64,000 nucleotides of DNA from an uncultured archaeon (GTDB taxonomy: Archaea; Aenigmatarchaeota; Aenigmatarchaeia; Aenigmatarchaeales; Aenigmatarchaeaceae): positions 115,876 to 179,875 of the forward strand of contig CAYFXV010000001.1 in the NCBI GenBank assembly GCA_964347265.1, in the 5' to 3' direction. The notes under the pieces are model-generated. The model saw only the letters and a list, made by a program, of their open reading frames with translations, was not told where the DNA came from and made no database searches. The first letter of the stretch is position 1. Each line of letters opens with the position of its first letter. Positions 21,001 to 59,283 of this stretch are shown here, piece after piece. Made by a program: the position numbers and the translations under genes.

Positions 21001-24000
21001 AATTAGTAATGGTTATTACAATTGTACCATCAATACAACATTAATGAGTGCAGGTTGGTACAACATAACTATTGACTCAAATAAGACTTATTATAATGAT
21101 GGATATTATTTTGATTCTGATGTTTTCTATGTAGAAACTATACCAGCATTAATCACACCAATAATTTTATCTCATAACGGAAGTGATATTGGGGGTTGGG
21201 GAGAGACATGGACTGCAATAACAAATGTTACTGATGAAGATCAAGATAATGTTACATTGAAAGTTCAAGTAAAGAAATACACGGATCCTGATACTCCAGC
21301 TAATTGGTTAGATGAAAATCAGTCAAGTTATTTCGACAATCCAGATTTGAGAGGACCTGTAAATCAAACTATTAATTTAACTTTCCAAGATTTGGACTTC
21401 ATGGATGATCAAGTAGTTTGGCAAGTTAGATTCATGGTCAATGATACTGACGGTTATGGTTCTATTTCAAGTTACACTAATTTCACAATAGACAAAGATG
21501 ATATTCTTATTGAATTACTTTATGGAGATAATGAAGAGGTTTGGAGGAATGGAACAGAAACTCTATCCTTAATATTAAACGTAACAGATCTTGATCAAAA
21601 TCTACCAGCAGATCAAGTGAATATGACCTTTTATATAACAACAAACAGTAGTGATCCTGAAAGTTTTGATGGCGGAGCAACATATCAAACTAATACAAGT
21701 GGGATTTCTGAATATCCATTTCAGCCAGATTGTCTTTATTCAACAGGTGAGCAGACATGGTATGGAAAAAATAATCCTGACCCTTATTATAAATACAATT
21801 TCACACAAAATTACAGTTTAAATATAAAATCTTACATTGCTTTAGAAGTTAATTATCCAACTGGTCAAAGTTTTCTTATAGGTGCACAAATACCATTTAT
21901 TGGAAGAGTTTTTGATGAGTGCTTCAACATTTCTAATGCTGAAGTTAATTTTTATGACAGACGACCTGGAGCAACTGAAAGATTTTATACATGTTACGGT
22001 ACTACAGATTGGGGAAACGGAACTTACAACTGTACATGGGATTCTAGCAATAAGCCTCCTGGTTGGCATGGTGTAAAAATAGAAGCAAGAAAAGAGTATC
22101 ATGGAAACTATCCAAATTATAATCAAACAATACGTTATATTGATGGATACGAAACTCACCACCTTTCAACTCAACCTTCAATTTCACTTGGTTGGAGTAG
22201 CTATCCTTCTGTTGATCCAAAGGTTGATGGATGGGGTAAATTAAGAACTTTTCAAGCAAAAATAACTGATTTGGATGGAAGCTTAAATAACATAAGTTTA
22301 TGGAAAAGTTTCGATAATAATACTTGGTATTTGATTAATTCAACTAACATGTCACCTCAAGGTGTAGATGTACAGGTAAGATATAATTTAAGTGGTGTAT
22401 TAACAGATCCATTTAAAAACAGATTTAGTTGTGACGATCTTTCTAATTCAACAGGTGGAATAGTTTATTTCAAATTCAACACAACAGACATATTTGGATA
22501 CGGTGACGAAAGTGAGATTGATAACTTTACTGTACAAGTTGATAATGTTACTTTGACTCTGGACCCATTAAGTAATACGACTACAAGAAGAATAGCAGAT
22601 AATAAAGCATATCTTAGATTCACGATAAGAGATGATGACTATGGTAATTATTATCCTGATAATGTAAATGGTAGTGTATGGATTACATTAAATGGAACAA
22701 ATTATAGTTATAATATTACAAATAGTTCTTACTCTGGAAACCTTACAGTATATTATAACTCTACTTGTAATTCAGATGTAGGCATTCAATATTGGAAAGG
22801 TGGAACAATAGATTCTTGTTATGAGATGAAAAACACAACTAATGAAACTTTAACTGTTTATGGTCAATTGAATGTTTCTTTGATAAGTCCACCAAATGAA
22901 TCTGTAATAAATCGTGATAAAAATGTTAGTTTAAATTCAAGTGTAGAAGATGAATGCAGTCAAAGTATTTTCGATGCAACAGTTAATTGGTACAACTCTA
23001 GCTCATACTCATTAGGAAACGATTATAATGTAACTTGGCACATTCCTGTTGAGTATAAATTAGGTAATGAAACAATTATAACAAATGCAACAAGAACTTA
23101 TTATGACTACGACAGCAATAACACAACTGTATATGTTTATGGTTGGAGTGATGTTAGTTATATAGAACCATTAAATGAAACAACCTATGATTCAGGAGAT
23201 GGTGTTGATATAGCATGTCGTGTTATAGATAGTAATACCACGCAACCGATAGCAAATTATGCTGTGTTTATTTATGTAAATGATGAATCTCTAGAAAACT
23301 TAACCACTGATTCAAATGGTTGGATAAATACAAGTTGGGACACAAGTGGTAAATCAGCAGGATGGTATAACATAACTTGTTCAATAGAAGATAATTCAAC
23401 TCTGTATTATAATACTTCTGCCTCACAAAATGAAACTTGGATAATGTTAGAAAGGCCGCTTAAAATAAATATAATACGTATGGATGGTTCTGCATGTCAA
23501 CAAGGACTTGTATGTAAATGGATATACAGAAATGATACATTTAGTCCATATAAAGTAAACATAACTGTTCATGTTATGGATGCCAGCATCGGAAGCGCAC
23601 AAGATGCAAATGTGACATTTTATAATTCTACTAACTTTTTAGGAAATTGTACTACAAACTCTACAGGTTGGTGTTATTTAGAGAATTACAATCCTGCCAA
23701 CAACACAAACCCAGCCATTATTACAATTTATATTAATGCAACAAGACCTGAAAATGAAGACTCTGTCACAAATACTAGTTTGTTAAGAGTAAAAGGAATA
23801 TTAAATGTTACAGTTATATCACCACCTGACATAGTACGTTGTGGTGCAAGTGGTTATGATTGTTCAAAATCTGAAGCAATTAATTTAACTGTTGATGTTT
23901 TTAGTGAAAACGGAGAAAATGCATCAACATTAAATCCAACTGTCACTTGGTATAATGAAACCTCGCAAGTAACTTCTGGTGGTGTAAGTATATTATTGCC

Positions 24001-27000
24001 TCAAACAAAAGTTAAGGAGCAAGATACTGGAAATCATAATTTCATGGCTGTGGCAACTAAAGACAATTATGATGATGGAAGCGCTAATGTTACATTTAAC
24101 ATATCTGGTGTTGTTACTGTTACTTGGATTTCTCCAACTGTAGAAACTCCTTATCCCTATGATTTCTATCCTACTTGTTATGTAGAAGATGAAGATGCGG
24201 GAATAGGAGTTGATGAATATTTAGTTAATTTCTCTTATAAGTGGGAACCGACACCAGATTTCACATTTAATGGAACCTATTTAACAAACTCAAGTGGTTA
24301 TGCAAATTATACTTTCACACCAACACAAAAAGGAAATATATCATTTAACTGCACAATAGGAGATAATACAAGTAGATATTATTCAAAAAGTCCTACACAA
24401 TATTTTGACATAGAATACGATATTTGGGTAAAAGATTTAGATCCACCAGAATTTTATAATGTTTCTATAGTACCTAATGAAAGCATGGAAGCAAATCTTA
24501 ATTATACTAACATAACTGTTTTTGTTAATGATAATTATGAAATAAAAACCGTTAAGGTTTATATAGAGTATCCAAATACTACCACTGAAAACTTAACAAT
24601 GACAAATCTAACTCCAATACAAAGTGAATTTGGTTATTATAATGCAACTTATAATCTTACATTTACTCCTCCGATAGGAGGTATCTATAACATAACTATT
24701 TATGCTATAGACGGAGATACAGAAAACAATTATAATTCTACATCAAAATATAACATAAGTGTCTGGGGAGGAATAAATGGTTCTGTTAGTCAATGTGTTA
24801 ACAATACAAATGATGGTGATTTAACAGACTGTGATTCTGACATAACTGCACCATTTATTTCACAAACAAATAGCTTTACATTTGAAGTAAGATCAAACTT
24901 CACAAACTTAGGTCCAGCCGGTGCATATGAAATTAATTTAACTCATTCAGAAGATCCAGTTGGATCCTTAACATATGATGATCCATACCATGAATGTGGT
25001 CTTTTGTATCCAAATGAAACTTGTTCATGGAACTTTAATGTTACTGTTCCTGCAGCCAAACCTCCTGGATTATATTTAACTCATGTAAATTCAACATGGA
25101 AGAATCCTGATAATACATATCAAACAGTGTATAATACAACTTATATTAGTGTTGATTCCAACCCAATAATAAACATAACTGAAACTGAATTGATAAAAGA
25201 TATAGCACACAATCAAACAACATATATTGGAAACATAACTATTGTTTCTGCTGGTAATGATGAAGTAAGAAACATTACTTTATCTTGGTATGGTATTAGC
25301 GGAGTAATGGGTTATTATAATTTGGCACTTAATTGTCCGCTCTGTTCACTTGATATATCACCAAATCAAGAAACCGTTTTATTTGCAGCAGACAACTTTA
25401 CTTCGCATATAAATATAAGTGTACCTGCTGGCCAAGAACCTGGAAATTATCTTGCAGACTTAATTGTAATGAGTGAAAATGCTGGAAATGATACTGCATT
25501 GTTGAACTTAACAGTACCTTTAAATGATTCATGGATCAGAACACCATTATCAGGTACATTCGGTACAATTTTAGCTCCGCTAAACACAAGCAATTTAATA
25601 GGATATATAAATGTAACGAACATTGGAAATATTAAGATTGCTTTTGAAGTAATTAAATCTGGAGATATCTATTCATATACAAAAATAGATAATCAAAACT
25701 GGTTTAGTTTTGATTTAGAAAAATTGGTAACAAGGCCATTAAATCTAACATATTCTATACCAGCTGCTGCTAGTGTTGGTGTTTATGATATTACTATTTA
25801 TATAAGGAATTTTTCTTTAACTGTACCACAACAAACCGTTAATTTTAGCTTAAATGTTACTGATGTACCACCAAATATAACAGATATTCAGATTGTTCCA
25901 ACATCATTTGAACAAGGTTATGAAAATGTAACTATACAAGCTAATGTAACAGACAATTTCGCAGTTGACAAAGTCTGGACCAATATAACTCCACCAAATG
26001 GAAGTAGTTTTATATTATTGATGCAAAACTATACAGGTTTTATATATAACATTACATATGTTTATCCTGTAGCAGGAACTCATGAAATTATAATATGTGC
26101 AAATGATAGTGCATCTTTATTAGCATGTACTTCACCAATAAATATTACAAGTTCTGATACAACTCAATTAACAATAAGTACAAATGCTACCCTATTAAAT
26201 GCTACACAAATAAGAATTGATTCTGGACAAGGTTTTGCAATTAACTTTTCCGTAAATAACATTGGAGCTTCAAGAGCAAATAATACTAATGTATCTATTT
26301 CATATCCAAGTAATATAACTGTATCTTATGACTATTTCGATTTTGGAGAAGTCCTGAAAAATACTTCAGAATATAATATAACAACAATAACTGTAGAGAA
26401 TGCCACCGCACCTGGAATCTATGTAGTCAATCTTACTGTTAGTTGGACCAACCTTAATAACACATTTAATTCAAGTCTATTTAACATAACCATAAATGTT
26501 ACACCAAATGCTGAAATCGATATTTTAGAAAATGTTATAAATAAAATAATTGAAGAAGGTGATTCAGACAATGCTACACTCACATTAAGATCTATTGGTA
26601 ATGATAATGTTACAAATGTTAATATAAGCTGTTCTTCAGGAGAAATTTGTGATCCAGTTAATAACTTTATAATTGACATTGAGCCTTGGAACATATCCTT
26701 AATGCCAATAGGTAACATAACTTATGTTAATATAACATTCGGTGTACCTTCAGGTTATCCAACTGGAGATCATAGTGGATACATAAGAGTTGATTGGAAT
26801 GATAGCACATCTACACAAAACTTCTCAGAAGAAATTCCTGTTAACATCCTAGTACCAGCAAATGTTTCATGGATACATAATCCAAAAACGATAGAGAAAA
26901 GAGTTTATGATAATGAAACAGGAAGTTATGGACAAATAAATATAACGAATACTGGGAATGCTAATGCTACACTAAACTTAACAATCAACGGAACCGTAGC

Positions 27001-30000
27001 TGAATGGTTGACATTAAGCAAATACAATATAACATTACTTTATGGTGAAATACAAACAATTTATGTTAATTACTCGTCTCCAAATATAACTTACAACACG
27101 AATTACACTGGTTATATAACTAGCAATATCACTGGAAGTTTAAGAGAAAATGCAACTACAAAAGAAGTGTCAACATTTGTAAGCTTATTTGTAAGTCCTT
27201 ATGGCGTAAACATAACTTATCCAACACAAAACAATCCTATCTTAGATGTTAATCCAGCAGATACTGTACAAGCAAAGGTTAACATAACTGAAAATGGAAC
27301 CATAGTGTCTTCTGCTGCAATGTTTGAAGTTACATTATTCAATGAAACGATGTCGAGTTCAGCAAATATTACTAGTTATCCTTTCAATGCTTCAGAAGGT
27401 TTTTGGTTAGTCAATTTCACAGCTCCGAATATTAGCATAGGAAGAATTTATAATTTAAATATTAGTGCAAACCATACTGGAGTTTATAATAATACAAGAT
27501 ATGATATTGAGTATGACTCTATAGTTTATAATGATACTACAGCACCTATTATAGATGTTATTTTTCCTGTAAGAACGCCTGCAAATCAAACTGTAAATAT
27601 AAAAATAAATATAACTGAATATGGTGGTTTAAAAAATATAACTGCAAACATTACTCATCCTGACAATTCATCTGAAATTGTTAACTTAACTTTCTTATCA
27701 AGAGTTTCTAATGCTTATACATATGAAAATAACTTTTCTAATACATCTCAAATAGGTATTTATGTTTTAAATACAACAGCATGTGACATTTCAGACAATT
27801 GTAATTCAACATCTTCCTCTTTTGAAATTTATCCAACTGCATACTTTAGTGGTCATGCAGTAGATGTAGAATCAGTAGGTGAAGAACCTATATACATTAA
27901 TTTCACATTTTATGATTCTAACACAACTACTATAAGGTTTAATTTTGGTACAAACTTAACTGACGGCTATTATAATGAAACTATTGATGTTAAATCATAT
28001 GATTTGAAAGTGAAAACTGTAAATCAAAGCTTCAGACATACTATTGAATTTAATACTATTAGCATTAGCAGTAATTATTATAATCCTATAATACTTGGTA
28101 ATATTCCAAGTGCTAGAACTACTATAAGTGCATTCAAAGGTCTTTACATTTATAGTAATTTGTCATCTTCTGATATGAAAATTATAATGGACTTTTCAGA
28201 ATGTTTGAGTAATGGTTGTGGTCCCCCTATTTATGATCCTCAACACTTAGCAATATACAAATACGATAGTAGCTGGACACCTAAAGTCACTTCTTCACAA
28301 AATACTTTATGGACTAGAATAAATAATGAAAATGGTGATAATGCAGATAATTCTGTTAATTTAACTACTCTTTCTGTTAGTGCAACTGTTTCATCACTAA
28401 ATGGAGCTTACATATTAGCTGAATTCATTTGTGGCGATGAAGAATGTGAAAACAGCTTTGGAGAAAGTACGAACAATTGTCCTATAGATTGTCCTAGCTT
28501 ACCACCAACACCACCTACAGAACCAACAGAACCAACACCTGGAGGAGGTGGAGGAGGTGCTGGTATGGGTACTGGAATAGCAGGTGTAGCAGGTGCTGGA
28601 GGTGCAGCTGCAGCAATAACCCCTGCTCAACCGCTTCCTGTACCATTAGAAATAAAATCAACTTTATTAGAGACTACATTAGCTCCAGGTGAAGAAAAAA
28701 TATTTTCAGTAGATATAACAAACAATTTAGACAGTGGTGCCACAGCAACACTTTTTGTTGAAGGACCTGTATTTGCTTTGTTGACTGTTCAAAAACCATC
28801 AATGTCAATAAAAGCAAAATCAACAGAAGTTAGTGAAATAAGAGCAGCAGCACCAGTAGCTGCTGTACCTGGGATTTATACAGGTGATTTAGTTATTAAA
28901 TCTGGCAGTATTGTGCATAGAATTCCTGTAACTATAACAGTAGAACCTGTTGTGGAACCATTGTTGGATGTACAAGTAAAAGCCTTATCTAAGGAAATTA
29001 ATCCTGGCGCAAATGTCAGCTTTGAAATATCTTTAGTAAATATGGGTGAAACAGCAGAAGTAGAAGACATAACTGTTACATACTCTGTTAAACCAGTAGC
29101 GAATCAAACAAATATAATATCTACTAGTTCAGAAACTTTAGCAGTTGAGGATAAAGTCACATACAGAAGAACAATTGAAATTCCAGCAGACACTCCTGAA
29201 GAGAAATACATTATTGAAGCTAATGCAAGTTATTGGTATGGTACAAAGTTTGCTGTATCTGCTGATAATTTTGATGTAACCACATTGCCTTGGCCTTTGC
29301 TGTTATTAAAAGCAGCATTCATGAATTGGATAACTTATGTTATTTTACTTGGAGGGGTTCCTGCACTAATAATTGGTATAAGATGGTATTCTGCTTATAG
29401 AGCATCTAAAGCAGCTAAAGCAAGATATATAGCACCTCTTGACTTTAAAACATTGCCACAAAAAAGTCCAGATTCATTATTAGTTGGTAAAATTGCTGAA
29501 ACTGATGTAAAAGCTTATATGAGTATTCCTCAACTCTTGATGCACTCAATAGCTGCAGGTGGAACTGGATCTGGAAAGACAGTATCTGCTATGGTAGCTT
29601 CAGAAGAGTTACTAAAGAGAAAAGTTCCAATAATTGTTTTCGATCCAACAGCACAATGGACAGGTTTCATGAAACCATGCAGCCTAAAACCAATGCTTAA
29701 ATTATATTCAAGATTTGGATTAAAGCCAACTGACGCAACAAGGTTTAAGACAACTGTTATATTAGTTGAAAACCCAAATATGCCAATTAACATAAAAGAT
29801 TACATGAAACCTGGAGAAATGACTGTCTTTGTAATGAACAGATTGAAAGGAGAAGATTTGGATAGATTTGTTAGAAGAAGTATACAAGCAATATTTGACA
29901 TGAGACCAACAGAATCCAAGCAAATAAAATTACTTGTAGTCTATGACGAAGTTCACAGATTATTACCAAAATATGGAGGAAAGAAAGGATATATTGCAAT

Positions 30001-30505
30001 AGAAAGAGCATGTAGAGAATTCAGAAAGTGGGGAATTGGATTATTCTTAATATCTCAGGTTTTGTTAGACTTCAAAGGAGCAATAAGAGCTAATATAGCA
30101 AACGAGATACAATTAAGAACAAAATATGAAGGAGACATAGGAAGAGTAAAATCAAAATATGGTTCTGATTATGCATCAAAAGTAACAAGACTTACCATTG
30201 GTACAGGTTTATTCCAGAATCCAGAATTTAATCACGGAAGACCTTGGTTCTTAATGTTTAGACCTTTGTTGCATTCACCGTTTGCTTTAACTGACAAAGA
30301 GATTGATACGTATATGAAATTAGATAAGAAAGTAAAAGAGATTGAAGACAAAATTAAGAAACTAAAAGCAAAGAAAGTTGATACTTACGACATAGAAGTT
30401 GAACTAAACATTGCTAGAGATAAAGTTAAAACTGCTGCTTTCAGAATGGCTAAAACTTATTTAGAATCAATTGAGAAAAGACTCGAAAAAATGGGAGTTA
30501 AATGA
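2..30505 (+). CDS. Giant (>10,140 aa, 5' partial) repetitive N-glycosylation-sequon-rich cell-surface protein ending in a TM helix and a cytoplasmic HerA/FtsK-superfamily (DUF87-like) P-loop ATPase domain
   Basis: A 30.4-kb uninterrupted reading frame in a ~30% GC genome, where random ORFs are short. The frame is open back to nt 2 with no stop (SNDSNSSITGDFIGIPQTTEKSFPIEV precedes the TTG at 83) and there is no N-terminal signal peptide, so the gene continues upstream. It contains hundreds of N-x-S/T sequons. A ~350-aa module periodicity is marked by P.V.P..GGWG..F.F.V.V.D.D..V.V.LW, YKFNATD, NPTC, VTDDCG and GxYNCTW motifs. The C-terminus is a PTPPTEPTEPTP + GGGGGGAGMGTGIAGVAGAGGAAAA linker, then two small beta-rich domains, the TM helix WITYVILLGGVPALIIGI followed by RWYSAYRASKAAKAR (positive-inside), and then Walker A AAGGTGSGKT, IIVFDPT, Walker B LLVVYDEVHRLLP and WGIGLFLISQ..D......IANEIQLR. 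Confidence 0.85.
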   Translation, partial: SNDSNSSITGDFIGIPQTTEKSFPIEVLADVSINLEVGENLVRATLILDNGDLLENQQIDFYLNNTLLGSGLTNSEGFVDFPVSDMGILKAVFSGDSSLFYNPSEIEKEIKPVEILTTKQEENITLTLEESEGIKFYRRLDCDRCGQHKTPPLTEVNMSIWVNNETGNLTDYYPTEWTIMNNNGGTITVHNETYNKIEFDKPSSWYIIESPNRTLPPTKYYFFSEFGGIISDSWFVIVSDPAAECVWKQDTISYSCVESGGQDSDCDNGNKTWNVGTSCTEAGGPTIGCYIANITVLFFTSNAATSQNHDAQFIIYNSTAAHYPASFNYPYEGYLGPLYSCGSVNNATTQPNSPTTCNLTGRGFNETSYNITSYVPAKGAVSVTQINYQWCWEDEFPKLDNPLVNDTQSGFTAGWGSIFNFSVEVWEPQGNETNISLWYTQTAGQNWMFAGSKNDTSPPKTAPGNLTNFTLNFSCSDGSITDSLSNDLGVLGATKYYKFNATDPYFNTNDTYNYYGNIYFTPVKDNLTLSNATPNNSVINRTDSIDLSQLVNDSIRSVSLGENEVGGTVYIQRDGTNFNDYYISGTNSTGYLNYNLTSTTMCTDNFDVGLQKWYISTDGSACYNGNQSENLTLTIQGILTATVKQPTGNQNYDRGQTVTIKGYIEDDCGAKTGWEDKINFTLITEGGTYYCNPITEVIGEAGNYSCNWDSNEGVAGTYNITVNTSDGYYYNSTVNETDAFSLVTTPRYDNISISPSSGSGWGNEYNYTVDIDDATGEEVNVSFWLQESGESWTYQESKNCTVGTNCTDVWFAKNFTCNDQNTWFFKFNVTDPYGTSNESSDTANSHVIGKDNVTIEYMAGNNTTASLDTPATFILRIYDFEKGTYNLSAPITFNVTKQGAGNDYYFVGTNTTNETGYVIFDFYADPSFDSVRQYWRGYVNTTQSPQCYDFNQSNEYNVTTRSNVPKLENESVSPITGGWGDSRRFNISVYDQNDTTNVSLWRSTSTGGPWIFVYSENYTSVDTWQNLSFLINFTCSEVRTDPWYYKFNATNAIGNKNTTTADSTRNFTVSKNDVIFVDFYGNNTIANRSGSQENLLFLRLVDGNGTNLSDYNASFYVTTDGENFPAVGVSNDSNSSGYVHYYFNPSCSPKNQVGDQMWKVEVGDACYQTNSTNTSGIYLNLTVMGNILITLSNPDGTENVTQRSNMLFLGSSDDDCGDSLTLNTTSGYEEVEYYANNSSTYGFYCDGYTLIGANSYRCYWKTNTSTPVGSYNGSMFVNKNYYYPNNTLDDADRGWLFYVEVLREFVNVSVNPSSEMWDYVNWNFSAVATSGDDENETIKLLLKKGAGAWRFCEDAIAQCSNMTPTNCTHCENQTYFWYANFTESNAGTWFYKFQMNNTNTLAADHETSGTDSFDVLTSAIRVYLENVTVGSSCGGYTCSWGGGNFTFNVTVNTTGVNNATVFLWYSPTNSEPWTLIEQDNYTIPGDQWQQLNFSKRYNCSDIGTNYYFFNATNYNGTTNTTASQTFTVTRDNVTFNYIEGHNSTANRTGIQTTLLSFQAKDLNGTNLSSFPIKYSITTNNVTYYTDNNFIVITDSSGYANLSFNATCANDYSGAPKFLVGDQQWKAEVNDTELSCYYNNDTSNFLYRNLTVMGNILITLSNPDGTENVTQRSNMLFLGSSDDDCGDSLTLNTTSGYEEVEYYANNSSTYGFYCDGYTLIGANSYRCYWKTNTSTPVGSYNGSMFVNKNYYYPNNTLDDADRGWLFYVEVLREFVNVSVNPSSEMWDYVNWNFSAVATSGDDENETIKLLLKKGAGAWRFCEDAIAQCSNMTPTNCTHCENQTYFWYANFTESNAGTWFYKFQMNNTNTLAADHETSGTDSFDVLTSAIRVYLENVTVGSSCGGYTCSWGGGNFTFNVTVNTTGVNNATVFLWYSPTNSEPWTLIEQDNYTIPGDQWQQLNFSKRYNCSDIGTNYYFFNATNYNGTTNTTASQTFTVTRDNVTFNYIEGHNSTANRTGIQTTLLSFQAKDLNGTNLSSFPIKYSITTNNVTYYTDNNFIVITDSSGYANLSFNATCANDYSGAPKFLVGDQQWKAEVNDTELSCYYNNDTSNFLYRNLTVMGDINITFTKPDGTSNYTQEDTMLFQGYTYDDCHDALLPTVKFYANNSSDNSSECTNVNILGENVFECDWETTIETQRGWYNTTMKANITGHYNNFSINSGDPGLFYLFPIYKLQNEGAVPTTEGWGYKNWNFSINASSGDPDNVYNVTFQINKGSPPVGSTPCNDSVCVNQTYKECSYPDCVGRTVYWYRNFSYNDQGTWFYKFLLNTEETSGNDIIIVEEDNITINRSSPPDETIVNRSGSQSVLFVVFVNDTDANHTAGNLTDGFPSATIYFNVTNTSGNYITYGSNLTNDTGHSNVSFNPNCTYPNGTQNWTSYTLNDPNYKNFTMNVHNITIWGDLEPQEIRTYNTTDESDIFYWDQTINVTGVIEDDCGNRISNETGINVTFKIYKNDTYPSEAIALCTDVEYLGNGVYSCQWFANTYENTTYKITMNASNVSLHNNGTYTKPGAFGLNVPPNTPPLVEAGSVTPNPGAWGSNFNFSVNVTDEDNYQNVTVYLWYSSDGNEPWTIINQTTCVENCTNNNETTIYFNKSDYSCQDIGTRYFKFNATDNSTKENAGSEQDEGPYMLNLTRNNVDFINAVGDGGTVNRSGTQNITFFIQINDTIKNVLVTSNVTKGRFWVTYDELNWDDGSDNRTSNASSYINYTFNPTCTPTRYNASGSQKWKAGVLNDSCYADNNSTNYSLTIKGDLVNSIIEPNGDVVSDPNNVTIIGNVTSDCSDDFVTDANVTFRISHESFTYFAEPDPANNNGTYYNATRNVTVTEGGNYSVIMNSSRSIYNPDNDTTSNAFHHQINPELTNDYVTPSSKAWGTTFYFYVNVTDDDDNVTVYLWTRCTGGNTTANDCYAGSEFKLNDTQTCFDCVNNQTQFSVTTVSNSIGNYEWFFNSSDSNGGINNTSIKTFNITKRPIYFVHQQGNESNVSRIGSNTTILQVKVYRVGVNGGADDELDGLPVRFWITLNGTDWSSTIRQNTSGQTGAGLVEHYFNPTCPTPEFFKTGQQKWNTTFAGNAIYFSNTSENFNLNINSTFIGIINVPNGDTFATGSNIFTSGNLTDECEIIIGATVTYGVEGEPTVTCSGTDHSNGTYTCTLPTSGLLTGWYNETMNASKAYYENLYHIDENNFEMRGGPTLFSEQINPATEGWGYNFTINVTAEDTDPSDYINISLWKSVGGGEWIEIATQDCDPGVCITPQPFFFYPEFNCTDYLNGPNINFKFNATDSYGLTDETSNFSATFQKDNVTFTIVQGQGINIGRENETNNFIIIVNDSDRNNNPVNASQESDNSINGTFWFGTVSGSATFDEGHNVSIEDASGQMNYTFDPNCSYEVGNEYWYAEIIDNQCYDDESMDTTSQTYNLFGQLKVNLYTPSEFSQWNVTDFINFRWNVSSDCYAQEGNISGLSNTFELNNFDNTSSCTDITEPFAGNYNCTWNSTSQPEGNWTVNITAINNTHWWNNFTSYADWFFLNNRNATGSNPTVNPPNGGWGGFYRYNITVNDSENDTVTCRLYTNTNGTWVYKGSDTISTPENCSIVVNDFSCGDQGSGEFYFMINDTYNVVNTSQTLGITDGPNLGTDEVTVTFIQEGGAPDFYVNRSGNQYTTMVLLVNDTIKSEQPNNTNVTFWVTTNETDYDSGNVVTTNSSGYAIYKFNPNCTGPFYDDGNQTWIGGTTDGCYNDTNTTTNFSLKIFGDLINTVIEPTGGFTVLRGNNTTIKVNVTDDCNASVNISTINITSIQDTNEYECSPILQYFDVSPTGFYNCTFNTSDPVLMPARYYKIKVNTTLENHTYEEVNETNAFFIETEPVLSSETVMLPETGWGSTNTFTVNFTDEDLDANSEVTVWFRKCTDETCTAYSPDWTSANSISNNSVSGIGINVSFNKTWGCGDIGYWQYKFNASDSRGYTNETSIHSFNLTKDDVSIEYFWGNNSVVNRSISENQVLSVRVKDLNKNVYVGVPIVSASGKFWVTNDTLNNFLEVFSDVSSDNSYLNRTWSPNCTFAIGPQKWKVNISNDGCYQDNTSDEFKINITTYPLVVNILQPTDNTTFLKGIDNILVKGNVTDDCSATLGKGIVNATVIFTAEKIDDGFSSSTPALCTVYNESDGEYNCTILNTTHEQVDWNYGIYNITMNATKNYYNNSITKTEEDAFVLASEPELKTITVSSTQGGSTGGWGEIWTYSIQLRDNDTNTVNVSLWAYNLSGTDVWELLNSTTCPGTLCPNPTSSFQTITFTGHNYSCSNLEGLYSRGITYKFNASDNLNYTNQSSNDTFTLERDNSFTLYISGGGTSVDREGDATTRLILQVQDEDRGYVIVEGGVSAKIFVTYNQTQWDSGADLTTNSSPNGGYVNYDFNATCSYETGLQWWRGGPYDDSCYKPSNNTPNRSVYVWGQLKNNLELPNYGSIYYTGDPITARYNTTSDCAGESLIANATPASIEFSLSGSTWFNCTSFNNEYDGWYNCTWTDTIQTHGQWDIRLNSSKSPDYYNSNSTIYTDWFNLTDSPPSYNNQNVSPSSGGWGTSFNFSINVSDIDANDINCTLFTYTNGAWTNRGTTTVSPSYPKLCSIIVDNFTCSDINTSSLNWFKWELEDVININNTTNTTGPNITKDSIQIIHLSGDGQPVNRTYGSLTIKVFVNDTTKNQGVGSGSDPTATVYFNITTNGTNYITEDSDTTSSGNASIDFAPTCSNYSIGLQDWFAYVLGDSCYIDQNSSTFNLTVLGSLTPLITLPTGDKYLRGENDTIIRGNVTDDCSQAFNTSIVNFTAIHQDSSTENLCSPTNNENDGWYNCTVNNTTHATWTAGAYRIKFNVTANNYNYNESIDNCAPGTNDENGGWCTNNYKGFWLETKPNLTAPSVSPSGDGGWGETWTFTVNSTDEDYDNLRVRLWIRKCDDDLCGSPGAWQLTGSNTSVSGINTTVTFTKSNFDEDAIDSGGKWQYKFNVTDYVSAIPNYDGWDNNETLIYNFTLQPDDINITYFWGNNSVVNRSIAPSQSNVTLSVRVYDTDRNALLSAGAGGTGKFYVTTDPYDTNSFIVDKSGISVTGNGFINETFPNTLYPSSSEPCNYSIGPLRWRAEYSGSAYEATNSSDFFVNLTTYPLQVNLYNPDNDTFRRNVDPIPYIGNVTDDCTDVLGTGVSNVTTVTFQGYYGTNYPSWALCQDGSVTDNNNGTYNCSVTSSAVAAFNRYNLTFNATKEYYNDSNTTEIIDSFWIVTNPRLDGEGVTTDDQGSVHPYSWGAVWTFSVTVTNPDVSQYTFDDMNLSLWLNLTGDWELANSTIADADDSDYATGKQVSFIQYFDCGDVGSKQYKFNITSFWNYNNTTAANGFSIDKDDVTAVFGSDPDNINRESGSELFVFRIRDDDNSSSYVTNSSTNVTIYFAYEENLNEYNISYTVNPNSTGYLNYSLDPDCNYSTGIHYWKGGIEEDGCYYGDNISAATYNITGQLKNNLTLPVYNSNYNVTDQIPVNFSTLSDCSNDRTDENPVINASDFSIEMSLDGSSWSECSSDNSYLGWYNCTWNSTDKSEGQWDVRVNSSKDGWFYSNSSIYTDWFNLLNWNVTNTSVPAVSPTEDGWTRTYNYTVNVSDQEGDTINCSLFISKDDQATWTYNGSYIVSGTPGIVTTGTCFIEINDFTCANMGTDNWFKWRIENGEPQNAWNTSAIQGPNLTESNVTVILIEGDDYVFNRSYGGNQVRRLGVNVYDDDNNSFNPNIYVSFWITNDTSSYRLETNNTTDSSGNASYYFDPNCTHSVGMQYWVAGVTDNCYEDMNATSTNFTLNVTGDLKFNITSPVNDTYQGTKYIRGVDNITFRGNISDECGADITSAVINFTAIQSGEEHMCSSVNNEGDGFYNCTVDGSDTSSWSPSNYQSSISYSVKFNATASFYNYNETIDTCSPATSGSGCTDSKRGFLLETTPNLTDPGVSPSGDGGWGETWTFTVNSTDEDYDNLRVRLWIRKCDDDLCGSPGAWQLTGSNTSVSGINTTVTFTKSNFDEDAIDSGGKWQYKFNVTDYVSAIPNYDGWDNNETLIYNFTLQPDDINITYFWGNNSVVNRSIAPSQSNVTLSVRVYDTDRNALLSAGAGGTGKFYVTTDPYDTNSFIVDKSGVSVTGNGFINETFPNSGVCNYSIGPLRWRAEYSGTAYNDTNSSDFYDDFFVNLTTYPLQVNLYNPDNDTFRRNVDPIPYIGNVTDDCTDVLGTGVSNVTTVTFQGYYGTNYPSWALCQDGSVTDNNNGTYNCSVTSSAVAAFNRYNLTFNATKEYYNDSNTTEIIDSFWIVTNPRLDGEGVTTDDQGSLNPYSWGATWTFSVTVTNPDVTGYSFDDMNLSLWLNLTGDWELANSTTCDADDSDYASGKSVSFIQDFDCGDVGSKEYKFNITSFWNYNNTTSANGFSILKDDVTIISDSDPANINRESGSGLFVFRIRDDDNASSYVTNSSTNAAIYFSYENVSEHNISYTVNPNSTGYLNYSLDPDCNYSTGIHYWKGGTTTDDCYYAVNLSSDPTFNVTGQLKNSIIQPSEDSEFAMGTLVNITSNISSDCQENVSSATVTHEASLYGSGTWEWANISAIENEEFGKYNSTWNTTFNQGGNWSFKINASKLNYYSNSTIFTNWTYLNNTAPTAENASVSPETDGWGSNYSFSISVDDMQYDNVTCKLFTYTAGSWSYRGNDTVYLGVGNCTVNVTDFTCSDINTTSLNWFKWEIDDATNVFNTSNVSAPSITKDNVTIYYEYGNNSTANRNMSQTDLLIVRIFDNNSQKYVGSQIPNATGRIFVTTNGNDFDSGTQNTTNSSGYLNIYFDATGDFSVGLQNWTGGTYGDSCYYDANLTQNYTLIVKGDLANSISSWISPGGKGESVVKPDNVSFQMLVKDDEDLGITGASLNVTFINSLYGNNFTCDTIMEISNGYYNCTINTTLMSAGWYNITIDSNKTYYNDGYYFDSDVFYVETIPALITPIILSHNGSDIGGWGETWTAITNVTDEDQDNVTLKVQVKKYTDPDTPANWLDENQSSYFDNPDLRGPVNQTINLTFQDLDFMDDQVVWQVRFMVNDTDGYGSISSYTNFTIDKDDILIELLYGDNEEVWRNGTETLSLILNVTDLDQNLPADQVNMTFYITTNSSDPESFDGGATYQTNTSGISEYPFQPDCLYSTGEQTWYGKNNPDPYYKYNFTQNYSLNIKSYIALEVNYPTGQSFLIGAQIPFIGRVFDECFNISNAEVNFYDRRPGATERFYTCYGTTDWGNGTYNCTWDSSNKPPGWHGVKIEARKEYHGNYPNYNQTIRYIDGYETHHLSTQPSISLGWSSYPSVDPKVDGWGKLRTFQAKITDLDGSLNNISLWKSFDNNTWYLINSTNMSPQGVDVQVRYNLSGVLTDPFKNRFSCDDLSNSTGGIVYFKFNTTDIFGYGDESEIDNFTVQVDNVTLTLDPLSNTTTRRIADNKAYLRFTIRDDDYGNYYPDNVNGSVWITLNGTNYSYNITNSSYSGNLTVYYNSTCNSDVGIQYWKGGTIDSCYEMKNTTNETLTVYGQLNVSLISPPNESVINRDKNVSLNSSVEDECSQSIFDATVNWYNSSSYSLGNDYNVTWHIPVEYKLGNETIITNATRTYYDYDSNNTTVYVYGWSDVSYIEPLNETTYDSGDGVDIACRVIDSNTTQPIANYAVFIYVNDESLENLTTDSNGWINTSWDTSGKSAGWYNITCSIEDNSTLYYNTSASQNETWIMLERPLKINIIRMDGSACQQGLVCKWIYRNDTFSPYKVNITVHVMDASIGSAQDANVTFYNSTNFLGNCTTNSTGWCYLENYNPANNTNPAIITIYINATRPENEDSVTNTSLLRVKGILNVTVISPPDIVRCGASGYDCSKSEAINLTVDVFSENGENASTLNPTVTWYNETSQVTSGGVSILLPQTKVKEQDTGNHNFMAVATKDNYDDGSANVTFNISGVVTVTWISPTVETPYPYDFYPTCYVEDEDAGIGVDEYLVNFSYKWEPTPDFTFNGTYLTNSSGYANYTFTPTQKGNISFNCTIGDNTSRYYSKSPTQYFDIEYDIWVKDLDPPEFYNVSIVPNESMEANLNYTNITVFVNDNYEIKTVKVYIEYPNTTTENLTMTNLTPIQSEFGYYNATYNLTFTPPIGGIYNITIYAIDGDTENNYNSTSKYNISVWGGINGSVSQCVNNTNDGDLTDCDSDITAPFISQTNSFTFEVRSNFTNLGPAGAYEINLTHSEDPVGSLTYDDPYHECGLLYPNETCSWNFNVTVPAAKPPGLYLTHVNSTWKNPDNTYQTVYNTTYISVDSNPIINITETELIKDIAHNQTTYIGNITIVSAGNDEVRNITLSWYGISGVMGYYNLALNCPLCSLDISPNQETVLFAADNFTSHINISVPAGQEPGNYLADLIVMSENAGNDTALLNLTVPLNDSWIRTPLSGTFGTILAPLNTSNLIGYINVTNIGNIKIAFEVIKSGDIYSYTKIDNQNWFSFDLEKLVTRPLNLTYSIPAAASVGVYDITIYIRNFSLTVPQQTVNFSLNVTDVPPNITDIQIVPTSFEQGYENVTIQANVTDNFAVDKVWTNITPPNGSSFILLMQNYTGFIYNITYVYPVAGTHEIIICANDSASLLACTSPINITSSDTTQLTISTNATLLNATQIRIDSGQGFAINFSVNNIGASRANNTNVSISYPSNITVSYDYFDFGEVLKNTSEYNITTITVENATAPGIYVVNLTVSWTNLNNTFNSSLFNITINVTPNAEIDILENVINKIIEEGDSDNATLTLRSIGNDNVTNVNISCSSGEICDPVNNFIIDIEPWNISLMPIGNITYVNITFGVPSGYPTGDHSGYIRVDWNDSTSTQNFSEEIPVNILVPANVSWIHNPKTIEKRVYDNETGSYGQINITNTGNANATLNLTINGTVAEWLTLSKYNITLLYGEIQTIYVNYSSPNITYNTNYTGYITSNITGSLRENATTKEVSTFVSLFVSPYGVNITYPTQNNPILDVNPADTVQAKVNITENGTIVSSAAMFEVTLFNETMSSSANITSYPFNASEGFWLVNFTAPNISIGRIYNLNISANHTGVYNNTRYDIEYDSIVYNDTTAPIIDVIFPVRTPANQTVNIKINITEYGGLKNITANITHPDNSSEIVNLTFLSRVSNAYTYENNFSNTSQIGIYVLNTTACDISDNCNSTSSSFEIYPTAYFSGHAVDVESVGEEPIYINFTFYDSNTTTIRFNFGTNLTDGYYNETIDVKSYDLKVKTVNQSFRHTIEFNTISISSNYYNPIILGNIPSARTTISAFKGLYIYSNLSSSDMKIIMDFSECLSNGCGPPIYDPQHLAIYKYDSSWTPKVTSSQNTLWTRINNENGDNADNSVNLTTLSVSATVSSLNGAYILAEFICGDEECENSFGESTNNCPIDCPSLPPTPPTEPTEPTPGGGGGGAGMGTGIAGVAGAGGAAAAITPAQPLPVPLEIKSTLLETTLAPGEEKIFSVDITNNLDSGATATLFVEGPVFALLTVQKPSMSIKAKSTEVSEIRAAAPVAAVPGIYTGDLVIKSGSIVHRIPVTITVEPVVEPLLDVQVKALSKEINPGANVSFEISLVNMGETAEVEDITVTYSVKPVANQTNIISTSSETLAVEDKVTYRRTIEIPADTPEEKYIIEANASYWYGTKFAVSADNFDVTTLPWPLLLLKAAFMNWITYVILLGGVPALIIGIRWYSAYRASKAAKARYIAPLDFKTLPQKSPDSLLVGKIAETDVKAYMSIPQLLMHSIAAGGTGSGKTVSAMVASEELLKRKVPIIVFDPTAQWTGFMKPCSLKPMLKLYSRFGLKPTDATRFKTTVILVENPNMPINIKDYMKPGEMTVFVMNRLKGEDLDRFVRRSIQAIFDMRPTESKQIKLLVVYDEVHRLLPKYGGKKGYIAIERACREFRKWGIGLFLISQVLLDFKGAIRANIANEIQLRTKYEGDIGRVKSKYGSDYASKVTRLTIGTGLFQNPEFNHGRPWFLMFRPLLHSPFALTDKEIDTYMKLDKKVKEIEDKIKKLKAKKVDTYDIEVELNIARDKVKTAAFRMAKTYLESIEKRLEKMGVK
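3539..6346 (+). repeat. Perfect 2 × 1404-bp (468-codon) in-frame tandem duplication inside the giant gene (3539–4942 = 4943–6346). A diverged third unit starts at 6347
   Basis: Identical antisense shadow ORFs at 4295..4675 and 5699..6079 are offset by 1404. Direct comparison shows identity from aatctaactgttatgggtaacattc (3539 / 4943) to ...ttcttgtatagaa (4942 / 6346). Flanking bases differ (3538 g vs 4942 a). The third copy diverges after ...gttatgggt (gatataaat instead of aacattcta). Confidence 0.85.
14888..16580 (+). repeat. ~1.7-kb block, copy A, of a near-identical (>95%) intragenic duplication spaced 3189 bp apart
   Basis: Identical shadow ORFs 14956..15144 / 18145..18333 and 15120..15314 / 18309..18503. 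The protein block VSPSGDGGWGETWTFTVNSTDEDYDNLRVRLWIRKCDDDLCGSPGAWQLTG...YSLDPDCNYSTGIHYWKGG recurs with a few substitutions and small indels (TLYPSSSEPCNYSIGP vs SGVCNYSIGP). Confidence 0.75.
18077..19760 (+). repeat. ~1.7-kb block, copy B, of the same near-identical intragenic duplication
   Basis: See copy A. The offset is 3189 bp, equal to one ~1063-aa supermodule. Confidence 0.75.
29290..30505 (+). other. C-terminal single-pass TM segment (~29290–29385) plus cytoplasmic HerA/FtsK-like (DUF87-type) ATPase domain of the giant protein
   Basis: Walker A codons gcaggtggaactggatctggaaagaca lie at ~29555–29581. Walker B ttacttgtagtctatgacgaagttcac lies at ~29931–29957. The ordered motif set GTGSGKT / hhhFDP / hhhhDEVH / R.FRKWGhGhhhhSQ is typical of DUF87/HerA-branch ATPases (pattern recognition, not searched). 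Confidence 0.6.
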
Positions 30506-32241
30506 AGAATAAAAAGAAGAATAAAAAAAATAAAAAAAAGAGAAAGCGAGAAAGCGAGAAGGACATAAAAGATATGTTGCTTCACTTAGAAGATGAATAT
30601 AGAAAAGCAAGTATTTCAGAAAAAGATTATAAGGAGCTAAAAGAAAAATATTCAAAGAGACTTAATAAGATGAACAACGTGGCTAAGAAAGATCCTCCTA
30701 AAGAAAAGAAGAAAGATACATTAGAAGTCGGAGAAATAGAAGAAGTTACGCCAGAAGTAATAGAAAAACTAGCAACGCAACTAAGTGAGCAGCCTGAAGT
30801 TGAAGAAGAAGTGAAAGAAAAAAAACCAGGTTTCTTTGGTAGATTGTTTGGGGGAAAGAAAAAGGGGAAGAAAGTCGAAGAGATTGAAACTACCACAGCA
30901 CAAGAAACTTCAGCTCCACCGACTTTTGAAGAATCAATGGATGAACCTCAAACATTAAGAGAGCCTTCAGAAGTTTATCAAACTTCTCAACCTTCACCTC
31001 GTTTTCCTGAATTAAACAAAAAAATTGGGTTGTTTGAAGTAGAAGTCGAGAAAGTAAAAGCAATGTTAGAAGCTGTAAAGGAAACTGGTCATGTTACAGA
31101 TGAAAGTATACAAGCGATTTCTGAAAGTATTGGAGAATTGAGATCTTTAATATTCCAAACTGATGCTAGTTTAAAAGAAACTATGGTGAAAATGGAAAAA
31201 ATAGAAGATGAGATTTCTGAAGTTAAACCTAAAGAGATTGTAAAAAAATTTAGAGTATTCGATACAAAAATTGAAAAAGATGACTTAGAAATTGAAAAAC
31301 TTCAGAAAAAATCAGAAAGTGCTAATGAAAAATTAAATAAAATGTATGAGATGCTTAAAAGTATAGATGGTATAGAAAATCTAGTTAATGTAAACGAAAA
31401 AATACAAGAAAAATTAAAAGAGGTTGAGGAAGCTGTAAAATATATAGGGAGGATAGGAGCTAAAACAGAGAAACAGTTTATGGATTTGAGTAGGGGTTTA
31501 GAAGATTTGGTTCTATTCAAAGCTAAACAAGAAGATTTTGATGAAGGTTTAAAAGACATAATGAAATCTATTGATGCTCTAAATGTTAAATTTGAAAGTT
31601 ATGTTAGTAAAAAGGATTTGGGTGTTTTTAGAGAGGATATATTAATAATTAAGAAACAATTAGAAAACATAAATAAAATTTTGCCATTAGCAGAAGTTAA
31701 ATTGCCTGAAAACATAATTGATTTGAGAAAAGAAAGGGAAGACATATTGTTGCTTCTTGATTCTCTTCAAGAACAATATGAAAACAAAAAAATTACTAGA
31801 GCTGAATATAAAAACTTCAAAGAAGGTAATGAGACGAGATTAAAAGAAATTGAAAAGCAATTGGCAAGTGAATGGAAAAAAATTGAAAGGATTATAAAAG
31901 TTTCTGGGAAAGAAAAGTCAGTTGAACAAGCACCAGAACAAGCAAAAGAAATTGAAACTAAAGAAGAGAGAATAACAGAACTTAAAACTAGCGGAAAAAA
32001 AGGAGAGGAGATGAAAGAAGAGATTGAAAAAATTGAACCAGAAGAGAAGGAAAAGGAAGAAGAACCTGAATTAGAAGAGATGAAAAAAGAGGAAGAAGAA
32101 ATTAAACCTGAAGAAAAAGCTGGGAAAGTTAAAAAAGAGGTAAAGAAAAAGGTAAATTTGAAGAAAAAAATTAAGAAAACGAAAAAAAAGAAAAAAGAAT
32201 CAGAAAAATCAAAAATTTTAAGTGAAATTAAAAAAATGTAA
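30502..32241 (+). CDS. Highly charged K/E-rich coiled-coil protein with basic poly-Lys N- and C-termini, function unknown; start overlaps the giant gene stop (ATGA)
   Basis: 579-aa ORF. The ATG at 30502 overlaps the TGA at 30503–30505. The N-terminus KNKKKNKKNKKKRKR and the C-terminus KKKIKKTKKKKK are basic. There is a long heptad-like E/K/L/I-rich stretch and no TM segment. Confidence 0.6.
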   Translation: MKNKKKNKKNKKKRKRESEKDIKDMLLHLEDEYRKASISEKDYKELKEKYSKRLNKMNNVAKKDPPKEKKKDTLEVGEIEEVTPEVIEKLATQLSEQPEVEEEVKEKKPGFFGRLFGGKKKGKKVEEIETTTAQETSAPPTFEESMDEPQTLREPSEVYQTSQPSPRFPELNKKIGLFEVEVEKVKAMLEAVKETGHVTDESIQAISESIGELRSLIFQTDASLKETMVKMEKIEDEISEVKPKEIVKKFRVFDTKIEKDDLEIEKLQKKSESANEKLNKMYEMLKSIDGIENLVNVNEKIQEKLKEVEEAVKYIGRIGAKTEKQFMDLSRGLEDLVLFKAKQEDFDEGLKDIMKSIDALNVKFESYVSKKDLGVFREDILIIKKQLENINKILPLAEVKLPENIIDLRKEREDILLLLDSLQEQYENKKITRAEYKNFKEGNETRLKEIEKQLASEWKKIERIIKVSGKEKSVEQAPEQAKEIETKEERITELKTSGKKGEEMKEEIEKIEPEEKEKEEEPELEEMKKEEEEIKPEEKAGKVKKEVKKKVNLKKKIKKTKKKKKESEKSKILSEIKKM

Positions 32242-33049: not shown

Positions 33050-33532
33050 TTGAAAAAAACATTTTTGAGTATTGTATTAGTAAATATTATGATTTTTTTT
33101 GCTTTAATTGCTATTCATGAAATTAGTCATATCTTTGTGGGTTACTGTTTAGGTTGTGAATATGAAAAAGCTGTTCTCTTTGACAGTAATTTTAATGGTC
33201 CGCACACTGAACTTATTTGCAATAACAGTATAAATGAGTTTTTTGTTTATATTGGAGGTTTGATAATTACATCGATCTTTAGTTTAAGTTTTCTGTTAGT
33301 GAACACCATTGAAAAAAATATGTCTTTTCTATCATTAGGTGTCTCAATAATTTTAAGCTCTTTAGATATTAGTTTTGTTTTAAATTCACAAACAATATTT
33401 TATCCTTTGCTAATTCTTGGGTTTTTCTTCATTACACTTGGAGAGTATTTTTTGACTTCTTCTTATATTAAAGAAGGTTTTTCTTTCAATTTTTTAAAAA
33501 ATAAGAAGCTTCCATTAGAAGAGGAAATGTAG
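33050..33532 (+). CDS. Small polytopic membrane protein with an HExxH motif (HEISH) in its first predicted TM helix; candidate intramembrane zinc metalloprotease-like protein
   Basis: 160 aa with about four hydrophobic segments. IAIHEISHIFVGY carries HExxH. The start is TTG at 33050, or ATG at 33089. Confidence 0.45.
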   Translation: MKKTFLSIVLVNIMIFFALIAIHEISHIFVGYCLGCEYEKAVLFDSNFNGPHTELICNNSINEFFVYIGGLIITSIFSLSFLLVNTIEKNMSFLSLGVSIILSSLDISFVLNSQTIFYPLLILGFFFITLGEYFLTSSYIKEGFSFNFLKNKKLPLEEEM

Positions 33533-41225: not shown

Positions 41226-41321
41226 TACTGTATCACTTGTATCTGCTATAGTAATTGTTACACTCAAAAAAATTGCTAAAAATACAAAAACTATCCCCAA
41301 AACTAACAAATTCCGGTTCAC
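40434..41321 (-). CDS. Secreted/surface protein, tandem paralog B (295 aa), with a divergent signal peptide
   Basis: N-terminus MNRNLLVLGIVFVFLAIFLSVTITIA. The rest is identical to paralog A. Confidence 0.75.
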   Translation of the reverse strand: MNRNLLVLGIVFVFLAIFLSVTITIADTSDTVTLDVNVSETASISVIPSYINWTQVATGSTGGYRNLTIKNAGSLNVSNLSAYVDSLTDETTRPYQSGDPSDFAAGGVITLSNDTTNYYFVGRIEWNWTEDIADHDWSAVTSPVSWGYHRNTSNDYVWVLGNGTPPVGDPNGIYCNNSAQFAIETDEDLGTTATRTPINAISLTTSTGSSGWAYGAVTTGTLSGHCVAADVSCTKIYIIKYDRTANYTDCANTEYFYNDDLTPGNSYTIRVDSWVPNGIPSGNMSQATLTIYAVS

Positions 41322-43722: not shown

Positions 43723-43941
43723 TTGGTTGAAAATGGAATAACAAGCAATGATTTGGAGAAAAAAATTCTAGATATGTTAAGCAAGGAATTATTATCTGTT
43801 TCTCAAATTGCTAAAAGACTAGGAATAAGAAGGGATGTTGCAACAGGATATTTAGAAGCATTAAAAAATCAAGGGAAATTAGAATTCCACAAAGTGGGTA
43901 GATCTAATATCTATACAATTCCTAGGAGGACAAAAAAATGA
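43723..43941 (+). CDS. Small winged-helix-turn-helix transcriptional regulator
   Basis: 72 aa. LSVSQIAKRLGIRRDVATGYLEALKNQGKLEF matches a helix–turn–helix plus wing pattern (ArsR/TrmB/MarR-like). It overlaps the downstream surface-protein gene by 4 nt. The start is TTG at 43723 (alternative ATG at 43774). Confidence 0.6.
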   Translation: MVENGITSNDLEKKILDMLSKELLSVSQIAKRLGIRRDVATGYLEALKNQGKLEFHKVGRSNIYTIPRRTKK

Positions 43942-58612: not shown

Positions 58613-58640
58613 AGCATTGTGCGTTGACGAGTTGTTGAAA

Positions 58641-59279: not shown

Positions 59280-59283
59280 TTAT

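Follow-up and report, generated by a model that had tools for sequence, protein, structure and literature searches.

The stretch of DNA analysed here, referred to as the window, comprises 64,000 nucleotides of contig CAYFXV010000001.1 (assembly GCA_964347265.1) from an uncultured archaeon of the phylum Aenigmatarchaeota, and it opens with a giant gene in which a very long repetitive ectodomain, a transmembrane (TM) helix and a cytoplasmic ATPase are encoded in one reading frame. The features of this gene and of the partner gene that follows it, all on the forward strand, are given below; Ig stands for immunoglobulin and AF2 for AlphaFold2.

2..30505, plus strand: giant gene, at least 10,167 codons, 5' end outside the window, type I membrane protein
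1235..22987 (residues 412-7662), plus strand: about 21 tandem modules of about 340 amino acids each, from a phmmer module map
3539..6364, plus strand: exact tandem duplication of a 1,404-nucleotide (468-codon) unit, 3539-4960 being identical to 4943-6364 (1,422 nucleotides)
28424..28645, plus strand: Cys-rich stretch and linkers, just upstream of the conserved C-terminal module
28496-28540, plus strand: Pro/Thr linker
28541-28615, plus strand: Gly/Ala linker
28646..29326, plus strand: two membrane-proximal Ig-like (NPCBM_assoc/CARDB-like) domains (Pfam NPCBM_assoc, E 1.8e-11; alignments to P0061, P0140 and P0141)
29327-29380, plus strand: TM helix WITYVILLGGVPALIIGI, the sole segment above a Kyte-Doolittle value of 1.8 and a helix in the AF2 model
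29381..29473, plus strand: basic juxtamembrane stretch (positive-inside), then the conserved motif ARYxxPxDxxxLP
29381-29425, plus strand: the basic stretch itself, RWYSAYRASKAAKAR
29474..30292, plus strand: RecA-like core of a HerA/VirB4-clade P-loop ATPase, without HAS-barrel
29552-29587, plus strand: Walker A, AAGGTGSGKTVS
29630-29659, plus strand: IIVFDPTAQW
29927-29968, plus strand: Walker B, KLLVVYDEVHRLLP
30014-30058, plus strand: REFRKWG...SQ block, REFRKWGIGLFLISQ
30293..30502, plus strand: C-terminal helical hairpin or short coiled coil (AF2 helices 329-354, 360-374 and 378-394)
30502..32241, plus strand: coiled-coil partner, 579 amino acids, cytoplasmic, poly-Lys tails at both termini; start codon overlapping the stop codon of the giant gene (ATG and TGA within ATGA)

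The frame bearing the ATPase is free of stops from base 2 of the window to the TGA at 30503-30505, that is, over 10,167 codons, the other two forward frames containing 1,542 and 741 stops over an equal stretch; at a stop probability of 0.08 per codon, such a frame would arise by chance with a probability of about 1e-370. Since the open reading frame (ORF) is truncated by the start of the window, the protein must be longer than 10,167 amino acids, with a mass above 1.1 MDa before glycosylation. Its N-terminus, including any signal peptide, lies outside the window, and the short paralogues of its C-terminal module possess signal peptides.

Most of the protein is repetitive, with 81% of the residues falling within internal repeats in a fragment-based self-comparison, while a BLAST self-comparison of the whole protein returned the identity match alone. 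Pfam was nearly blind in this region, finding nothing in the first 5,000 amino acids and, in the remainder of the ectodomain, NPCBM_assoc only, plus weak MG4 and PITM matches, so that structure prediction was needed. The AF2 model of one module of about 340 residues, built on the window's own copies (alignment A2), was all-beta, with three sandwich domains and a predicted local distance difference test score (pLDDT) of 77. Foldseek related it to the macroglobulin (MG) domains of C3/C5/A2M/CD109, to FN3 arrays and to the giant adhesin SiiE. Each module is therefore predicted as three macroglobulin/Ig/FN3-like beta-sandwich domains dense in glycosylation sequons, and the ectodomain, as modelled, would be a heavily N-glycosylated string of roughly 60 or more such domains, the module array being the presumed adhesive fibre. 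No laminin-G, protease or toxin-like parts were detected in the giant protein. The exact 1,404-nucleotide duplication reflects either a very recent event or an uncertainty in the assembled copy number, and as the unit is a multiple of three, the continuity of the ORF is unaffected.

The membrane topology could be read from the statistics of the translated protein. A Kyte-Doolittle scan with 19-residue windows over the 10,167 amino acids gave just one segment above 1.8, the TM helix (hydrophobic segment at residues 9773-9793), which is preceded by about 9,775 residues. Ahead of this helix there are 710 N-X-S/T sequons (7.3 per 100 amino acids vs 2.3 expected from composition) and 189 cysteines, and behind it no sequon and two cysteines; a Lys/Arg-rich stretch follows directly. 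This asymmetry, together with the Lys/Arg-rich stretch, supports an N-out, C-in topology, which would place the ATPase in the cytoplasm. Next to the membrane, R39, Y40, P43, L49 and P50 are nearly invariant in alignment A1.

As regards the ATPase, both Pfam DUF87 (33 bits, cut-off 23.2) and HerA_C (24.9 bits, cut-off 22) were above threshold. ResIII, DEAD and T2SSE all remained below it, the ResIII match (15.9 bits vs a cut-off of 22.5) being confined to the P-loop and the DEVH region. Among the NCBIfam models, the HerA equivalogs reached 15-32 bits vs cut-offs of 800-970, and the CedD, TraD and TraC matches were also far below their cut-offs. A profile of 67 homologues compared with the PDB matched exclusively HerA-type chains, and HerA and DndH outscored VirB4. 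The monomer AF2 model based on the same 67-homologue alignment had a pLDDT of 92.7 and a predicted template modelling score of 0.89. Residues G84, G87, G89, K90, D213, E214, R236-G242 and S249-Q250 are invariant in the 67 sequences; because its catalytic residues are thus conserved, the domain is judged to be an active NTPase under selection, with R236 and R239 as candidate arginine fingers. An earlier sequence-only reading of this DNA had proposed a single frame through repeats, linkers, TM helix and ATPase, a 'repeat protein', a sequon-rich extracellular part with one TM helix, and a RecA-like ATPase of the HerA/DUF87 branch. All of these points were borne out, the quoted motifs lying in frame.

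The domain does not, however, fall within any of the established families of the clade. It has the RecA-like core and the signature motifs of HerA, but the N-terminal HAS-barrel is absent from the AF2 model, in which the TM helix (7-37) is followed by a coil, three short strands and the P-loop (84-90); the spacing of about 47 residues between TM helix and P-loop leaves no room for such a barrel. Neither NurA, the operon partner of HerA, nor Mre11/Rad50, which often accompany them, were found among the ORFs of the window. The N-terminal domain of VirB4 (PF03135) was not found by Pfam in the window ATPase and is also absent from the precomputed Pfam lists of the nanohaloarchaeal paralogues, and the window holds no VirB3/6/8/10-like membrane components of a type IV secretion system (T4SS). 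The N-terminal multi-TM anchor, the all-alpha domain and the FtsK alpha/gamma domains that characterize type IV coupling proteins (T4CPs), FtsK and SpoIIIE were not detected either. Membership in HerA proper, VirB4, T4CP or FtsK is consequently rejected. Two functional readings of the domain were also discarded: a defence system, for which PADLOC gave weak HerA and mad8 matches and no partner effector, and a restriction enzyme, for which the ResIII and DEAD matches do not reach threshold and cover no more than the P-loop and DEVH region. Structurally, the motor belongs with HerA and not with restriction enzymes.

The sequence-only reading had held this architecture to be undescribed, a claim which must be withdrawn, since the same design was published in 2019 as the SPEARE proteins of Nanohaloarchaeota (Hamm 2019, PMC6642349) and re-annotated in 2023 (PMC10266531). 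In the first description, the SPEARE proteins reached up to 8,553 amino acids, were mostly extracytoplasmic and had a TM domain toward the C-terminus followed by a conserved cytoplasmic part, which was interpreted as a type III restriction enzyme; SPEARE-like sequences were also noted in Aenigmarchaeota, Woesearchaeota, Micrarchaeota and Altiarchaeales (PMC6642349). The weak ResIII match explains this restriction-enzyme annotation. In the second, some 75 Ig-like domains were described in proteins of 9,409 and 8,880 amino acids, along with a TM helix, an ATPase resembling VirB4/TraG and, at the end, a coiled coil; a T4SS-like 'straw' was proposed (PMC10266531). The named giants of the family are NAR1_1133 (5,998 amino acids) and, from Ca. 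Nanopetramus SG9, AOV94740.1 (8,553 amino acids) and AOV94739.1, to which SVXNc_0300 (9,409 amino acids) and BNXNv_0298 (8,880 amino acids) were added (PMC10266531).

Homology to these proteins could be traced directly. With BLASTP, the tail of the window protein aligned end to end with AOV94739.1 (P0140) at 33% identity over 603 amino acids (E 2e-114), and with WEL19326.1 (P0141), annotated in Ca. Nanohalococcus occultus as 'VirB4/TraG-like ATPase / HerA helicase', at E 1e-122; through both, the cytoplasmic domain is homologous to that of named SPEAREs. The family link is drawn by way of AOV94739.1, the SVXNc paralogue and the Nanohalarchaeota loci rather than by direct alignment to the giants NAR1_1133 and SVXNc_0300, neither of which is among the matches listed. 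Like the SPEAREs, the window protein has a very long extracytoplasmic region of adhesion/Ig-like domains, a single TM helix near the C-terminus with, by its sequence statistics, a cytoplasmic C-terminal part, a conserved ATPase and a terminal coiled coil, the last also reported for SVXNc_0300 (PMC10266531). It likewise comes from a DPANN host, its cytoplasmic part is the most conserved, and the homology covers the whole C-terminal module of about 600 amino acids. By Pfam, neither of the two domains used earlier as a SPEARE criterion was found in the window protein; as they are likewise absent from the nanohaloarchaeal proteins (PMC10266531), this feature no longer defines the family. With a probability that we put at about 0.85-0.9 for identity and topology, the window protein is thus an Aenigmatarchaeota SPEARE-type giant surface protein. 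Regarding AOV94739.1, its record has 625 amino acids, while the legend of Fig. 7 in Hamm 2019 gives a 3,315-amino-acid 'SPEARE 3'; the accession and length labels of that legend appear to have been swapped with those of the version of about 655 amino acids.

Several traits set the window protein apart from the SPEAREs of PMC6642349 and PMC10266531, namely the phylum, its greater length (at least 10,167 amino acids) and the regular array of three-domain modules of about 340 amino acids in its ectodomain. Moreover, unlike SVXNc_0300, which has a short ATPase paralogue adjacent, the window gene stands next to a coiled-coil gene. Neither a protein this large nor the coupled coiled-coil partner is found in the two papers, and a genomics paper on Aenigmarchaeota leaves these proteins unmentioned. 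The SPEARE-type design extends intact to Aenigmatarchaeota, with more than 10,167 residues vs the 9,409 amino acids of the 'largest in cultivated archaea'.

Relatives of the ATPase were sought in the genomes of GTDB species, each species being represented by a single genome; at least 581 loci encoding one were found, in Aenigmat-, Micr-, Nanohal-, Nano-, Woese-, Alti- and Parvarchaeota. Among the best 80 loci, 73 have no stop in the ATPase ORF up to the 5' edge of the retrieved DNA, and in 40 the ORF fills the entire 10 kb (at least 3,600 amino acids); because of the former count, the ORF with its ATPase fusion is taken, on the comparison of these DPANN loci, to be no artefact, and the giant fusion was observed in at least 73 related species genomes. 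Four orthologues can be aligned collinearly with the window protein along 3,730 amino acids, with identities of 86% (L006), 58% (L007), 51% (L011) and 40% (L033), and in such close relatives conservation is always higher in the ATPase than in the ectodomain. Long open ORFs with an ATPase 56-60% identical were also found in two Nanohalarchaeota loci (L049 and L076). Two module-bearing contigs labelled as Heimdallarchaeota and as a Halanaerobiaceae bacterium (L032 and L075) are probably mis-binned short contigs.

The unit that is shared most widely is the C-terminal one. In two loci (L010 and L043), only the last ~615 residues are common with the window protein, which points to a conserved C-terminal module with varied ectodomains. 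This module consists of two Ig-like domains, the TM helix, the ATPase and the hairpin, and it also occurs free-standing, in paralogues of 620-730 amino acids with a signal peptide (L002-L004 and L080). That it is attached to unrelated ectodomains in some proteins and to a small head rich in Cys in others indicates domain shuffling. Two loci depart from the pattern. A collinear orthologue of the giant gene (L001, 1-11203) is broken in its final 5 kb by five or more frame changes, which leave a TM-ATPase ORF of 400 amino acids, and it represents either a pseudogene, a gene fission or an error-prone assembly; another (L018) carries the ATPase in a stand-alone form of 397-439 amino acids and is likewise either a decayed copy or an assembly error.

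Other known systems were compared as well. HerA of Sulfolobus solfataricus (PDB 4D2I) shares 18% identity with the window ATPase, which differs from it in being membrane-anchored and devoid of the HAS-barrel; and, unlike HerA and the HerA-like defence ATPases, the window gene has no NurA/Mre11/Rad50 or defence-effector neighbour. VirB4, TrwB/VirD4/TraD, FtsK/SpoIIIE, EccC and CedB have a small ectodomain or none, work with dedicated channel proteins and are not known to be fused to a giant adhesin, and none of the domains specific to VirB4, T4CP, FtsK, EccC or CedB (N-terminal, all-alpha) was detected in the window protein. A looser analogue is provided by the giant proteins of Omnitrophota (West-Roberts 2023, bioRxiv 10.1101/2023.11.21.568195), in which C-terminal TM anchors are followed by a SecA-like ATPase and for which self-export was proposed. 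These proteins (Archaeovorin and Dockerin types) are bacterial, with a SecA/DEAD-like ATPase, many TM regions and enzymatic domains, whereas the window protein belongs to the HerA clade. Hence the locus, which the sequence-only reading had ranked as its strongest candidate for a novel system, belongs to the already described SPEARE family. Its interest lies elsewhere: DPANN archaea depend on contact with a host cell, SPEARE-type proteins are the most conspicuous candidates for attachment or exchange, and the cytoplasmic domain with its partner gene makes a compact, testable core and no new kind of system.

The partner gene downstream of the ATPase recurs in about 95% of related DPANN loci. To judge from the overlap of its ATG with the TGA of the giant gene, it is translationally coupled to it. 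Its product has no TM helix, matched nothing in the PDB and gave generic SMC/coiled-coil noise only with Pfam and NCBIfam. Homologues are present in L001 (41% identity) and L002 (28% identity) and, as determined with tblastn, downstream of the ATPase in 70 of 72 loci; in 60 of 75 the partner is the next ORF. Less constant companions are MinD/ParA-like ATPases, an MG2/NPCBM_assoc surface protein of 1,964 amino acids and a small membrane protease of M50B-like type.

The most likely role of the protein is that of a ring translocase or of an anchoring hub at the site of contact with the host. In the former case, the ectodomain would be exported by Sec and would form a long adhesive fibre binding the host cell or another surface, and the ATPase domains, held by their TM helices and bound to the coiled-coil partner, would assemble into a ring beneath the membrane, as may be expected because all characterised relatives form rings. 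Such a ring may contain giant and short subunits together. ATP hydrolysis would then thread a polymer at the contact site, DNA most likely, by homology to HerA, FtsK, TraB and CedB. This polymer translocase, with DNA a likelier cargo than protein, is put forward tentatively by analogy with these relatives, with a likelihood clearly below even odds.

Several observations weigh against it. Six single TM helices would make a poor channel, and any transport model has to account for one TM helix per chain with no conserved channel partner. In fact, a conserved polytopic membrane partner was not found in the loci, the sole candidate being an M50B-like protein present in 13 of 72; and the window contains no NurA, no CedA-like channel and no T4SS component. 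Finally, the split orthologue (L001) and the stand-alone ATPase (L018) mean either that the fusion is not obligatory or that these assemblies contain errors.

The alternative that survives best does without transport altogether. In it, the ATPase ring would serve as a hub, controlled by ATP, for oligomerisation, anchoring or positioning, and would bundle giant chains, tie them to the coiled-coil scaffold and to MinD/ParA-type ATPases, and so cluster or remodel the adhesin where the host is contacted. This would suit the nearly universal, translationally coupled partner, the single TM helix per chain with no channel partner and the conserved juxtamembrane motif, which suggests a docking site. 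It would also suit the MinD/ParA-like genes, which in 28-29 of 72 loci lie no further than 10 kb away and which occur twice in the window, there adjoining other C-terminally anchored surface proteins. No scaffold-only member of the HerA/VirB4/FtsK clade is known, however, and the strict conservation of catalytic and sensor residues fits a working motor, although a switch would still be compatible with it; on balance, the hub is considered unlikely.

The T4SS-like 'straw' (PMC10266531), in which the Ig-like fibre binds the host and a VirB4/TraG-like ATPase powers the injection of effectors through the giant protein, is rendered improbable by the better scores of HerA and DndH over VirB4 and the absence of PF03135, by the lack in the window of VirB3/6/8/10-like or other conserved polytopic proteins, and by the ectodomain itself, which is a row of beta-sandwich beads and offers no conduit. 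A motor acting in cis on the export or assembly of the giant protein itself would have its precedent in the Omnitrophota proteins, whose SecA-like domains also come after the TM anchors. In the window protein, though, the ATPase is synthesised last, once the ectodomain must already be across the membrane, short paralogues with just two Ig-like domains retain the ATPase, and HerA-clade enzymes are not known as protein-export motors, all of which makes self-export highly improbable. An artefact, be it the erroneous joining, in sequencing or assembly, of an adhesin gene to a separate TM-ATPase gene or a mis-assembly of repeats, can hardly be credited: the frame changes in L001, the stand-alone L018 form and the exact 1,422-nucleotide repeat, whose copy number could be mis-assembled, speak for it, but 73 of 80 independent assemblies from many phyla have the ORF open across the junction, a single alignment to the short paralogues crosses that junction, running from the Ig-like domains through the TM helix into the ATPase, the length of the repeat unit is divisible by three, and a SPEARE protein was detected by proteomics in culture (PMC6642349).

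Taken further, the ~615-residue module and its coupled partner may form the centre of a machine that is used at contact sites throughout the DPANN archaea and that differs from T4SS, Ced, FtsK and the type VII secretion system, a reading regarded as possible but doubtful. Were it true, short and giant subunits could, for instance, share rings in which ATP hydrolysis is coupled to the uptake of host DNA or other macromolecules, or to the mechanical reeling of a megadalton adhesin, and the giant fusion would be merely the adhesin-bearing subunit of that machine.

Further genes of the neighbourhood are as follows.

33050-33532: M50B-like protein, 160 amino acids, four TM helices, HEISH (HExxH) motif, weak Peptidase_M50B match
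33569-39463: surface protein, 1,964 amino acids, MG2/NPCBM_assoc
39474-40358 and 40434-41321, minus strand: tandem secreted sequon-rich paralogues, about 294 amino acids, 93% identical
43938-46331: surface protein, 797 amino acids; a MinD/ParA-like ATPase gene is next (46331-47107)
47132-52405: secreted protein, 1,757 amino acids, PQQ/FG-GAP beta-propellers, 109 sequons
55687-56970: surface protein, 427 amino acids; a MinD/ParA-like ATPase gene is next (57289-58053)

The M50B-like protein is a candidate processing protease, since the ecto part and the TM plus cytoplasmic part of a SPEARE were recovered in separate size fractions (Hamm 2019, PMC6642349). The surface proteins of 1,964, 797 and 427 amino acids end alike, in a unit made up of an Ig-like domain, a helical segment outside the cell, a TM helix and a short tail that is basic or coiled. 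The MinD/ParA-like genes after the latter two suggest that surface proteins anchored in this way are repeatedly paired with ATPases of the cytoplasm. PQQ-like propellers, as in the 1,757-amino-acid protein, have been reported at the N-terminus of SVXNc_0300, and a homologue of the paralogues of about 294 amino acids lies in the equivalent relative position in L001. A type IV pilus locus was considered for these neighbours and set aside, their N-termini resembling ordinary signal peptides and PilB/TadC being absent. The chromosomal setting is ordinary, in a genome of about 32% GC, with the archaeal ribosomal protein genes L1 and L10 downstream (58617-60571), the latter with the RL10P insertion domain.

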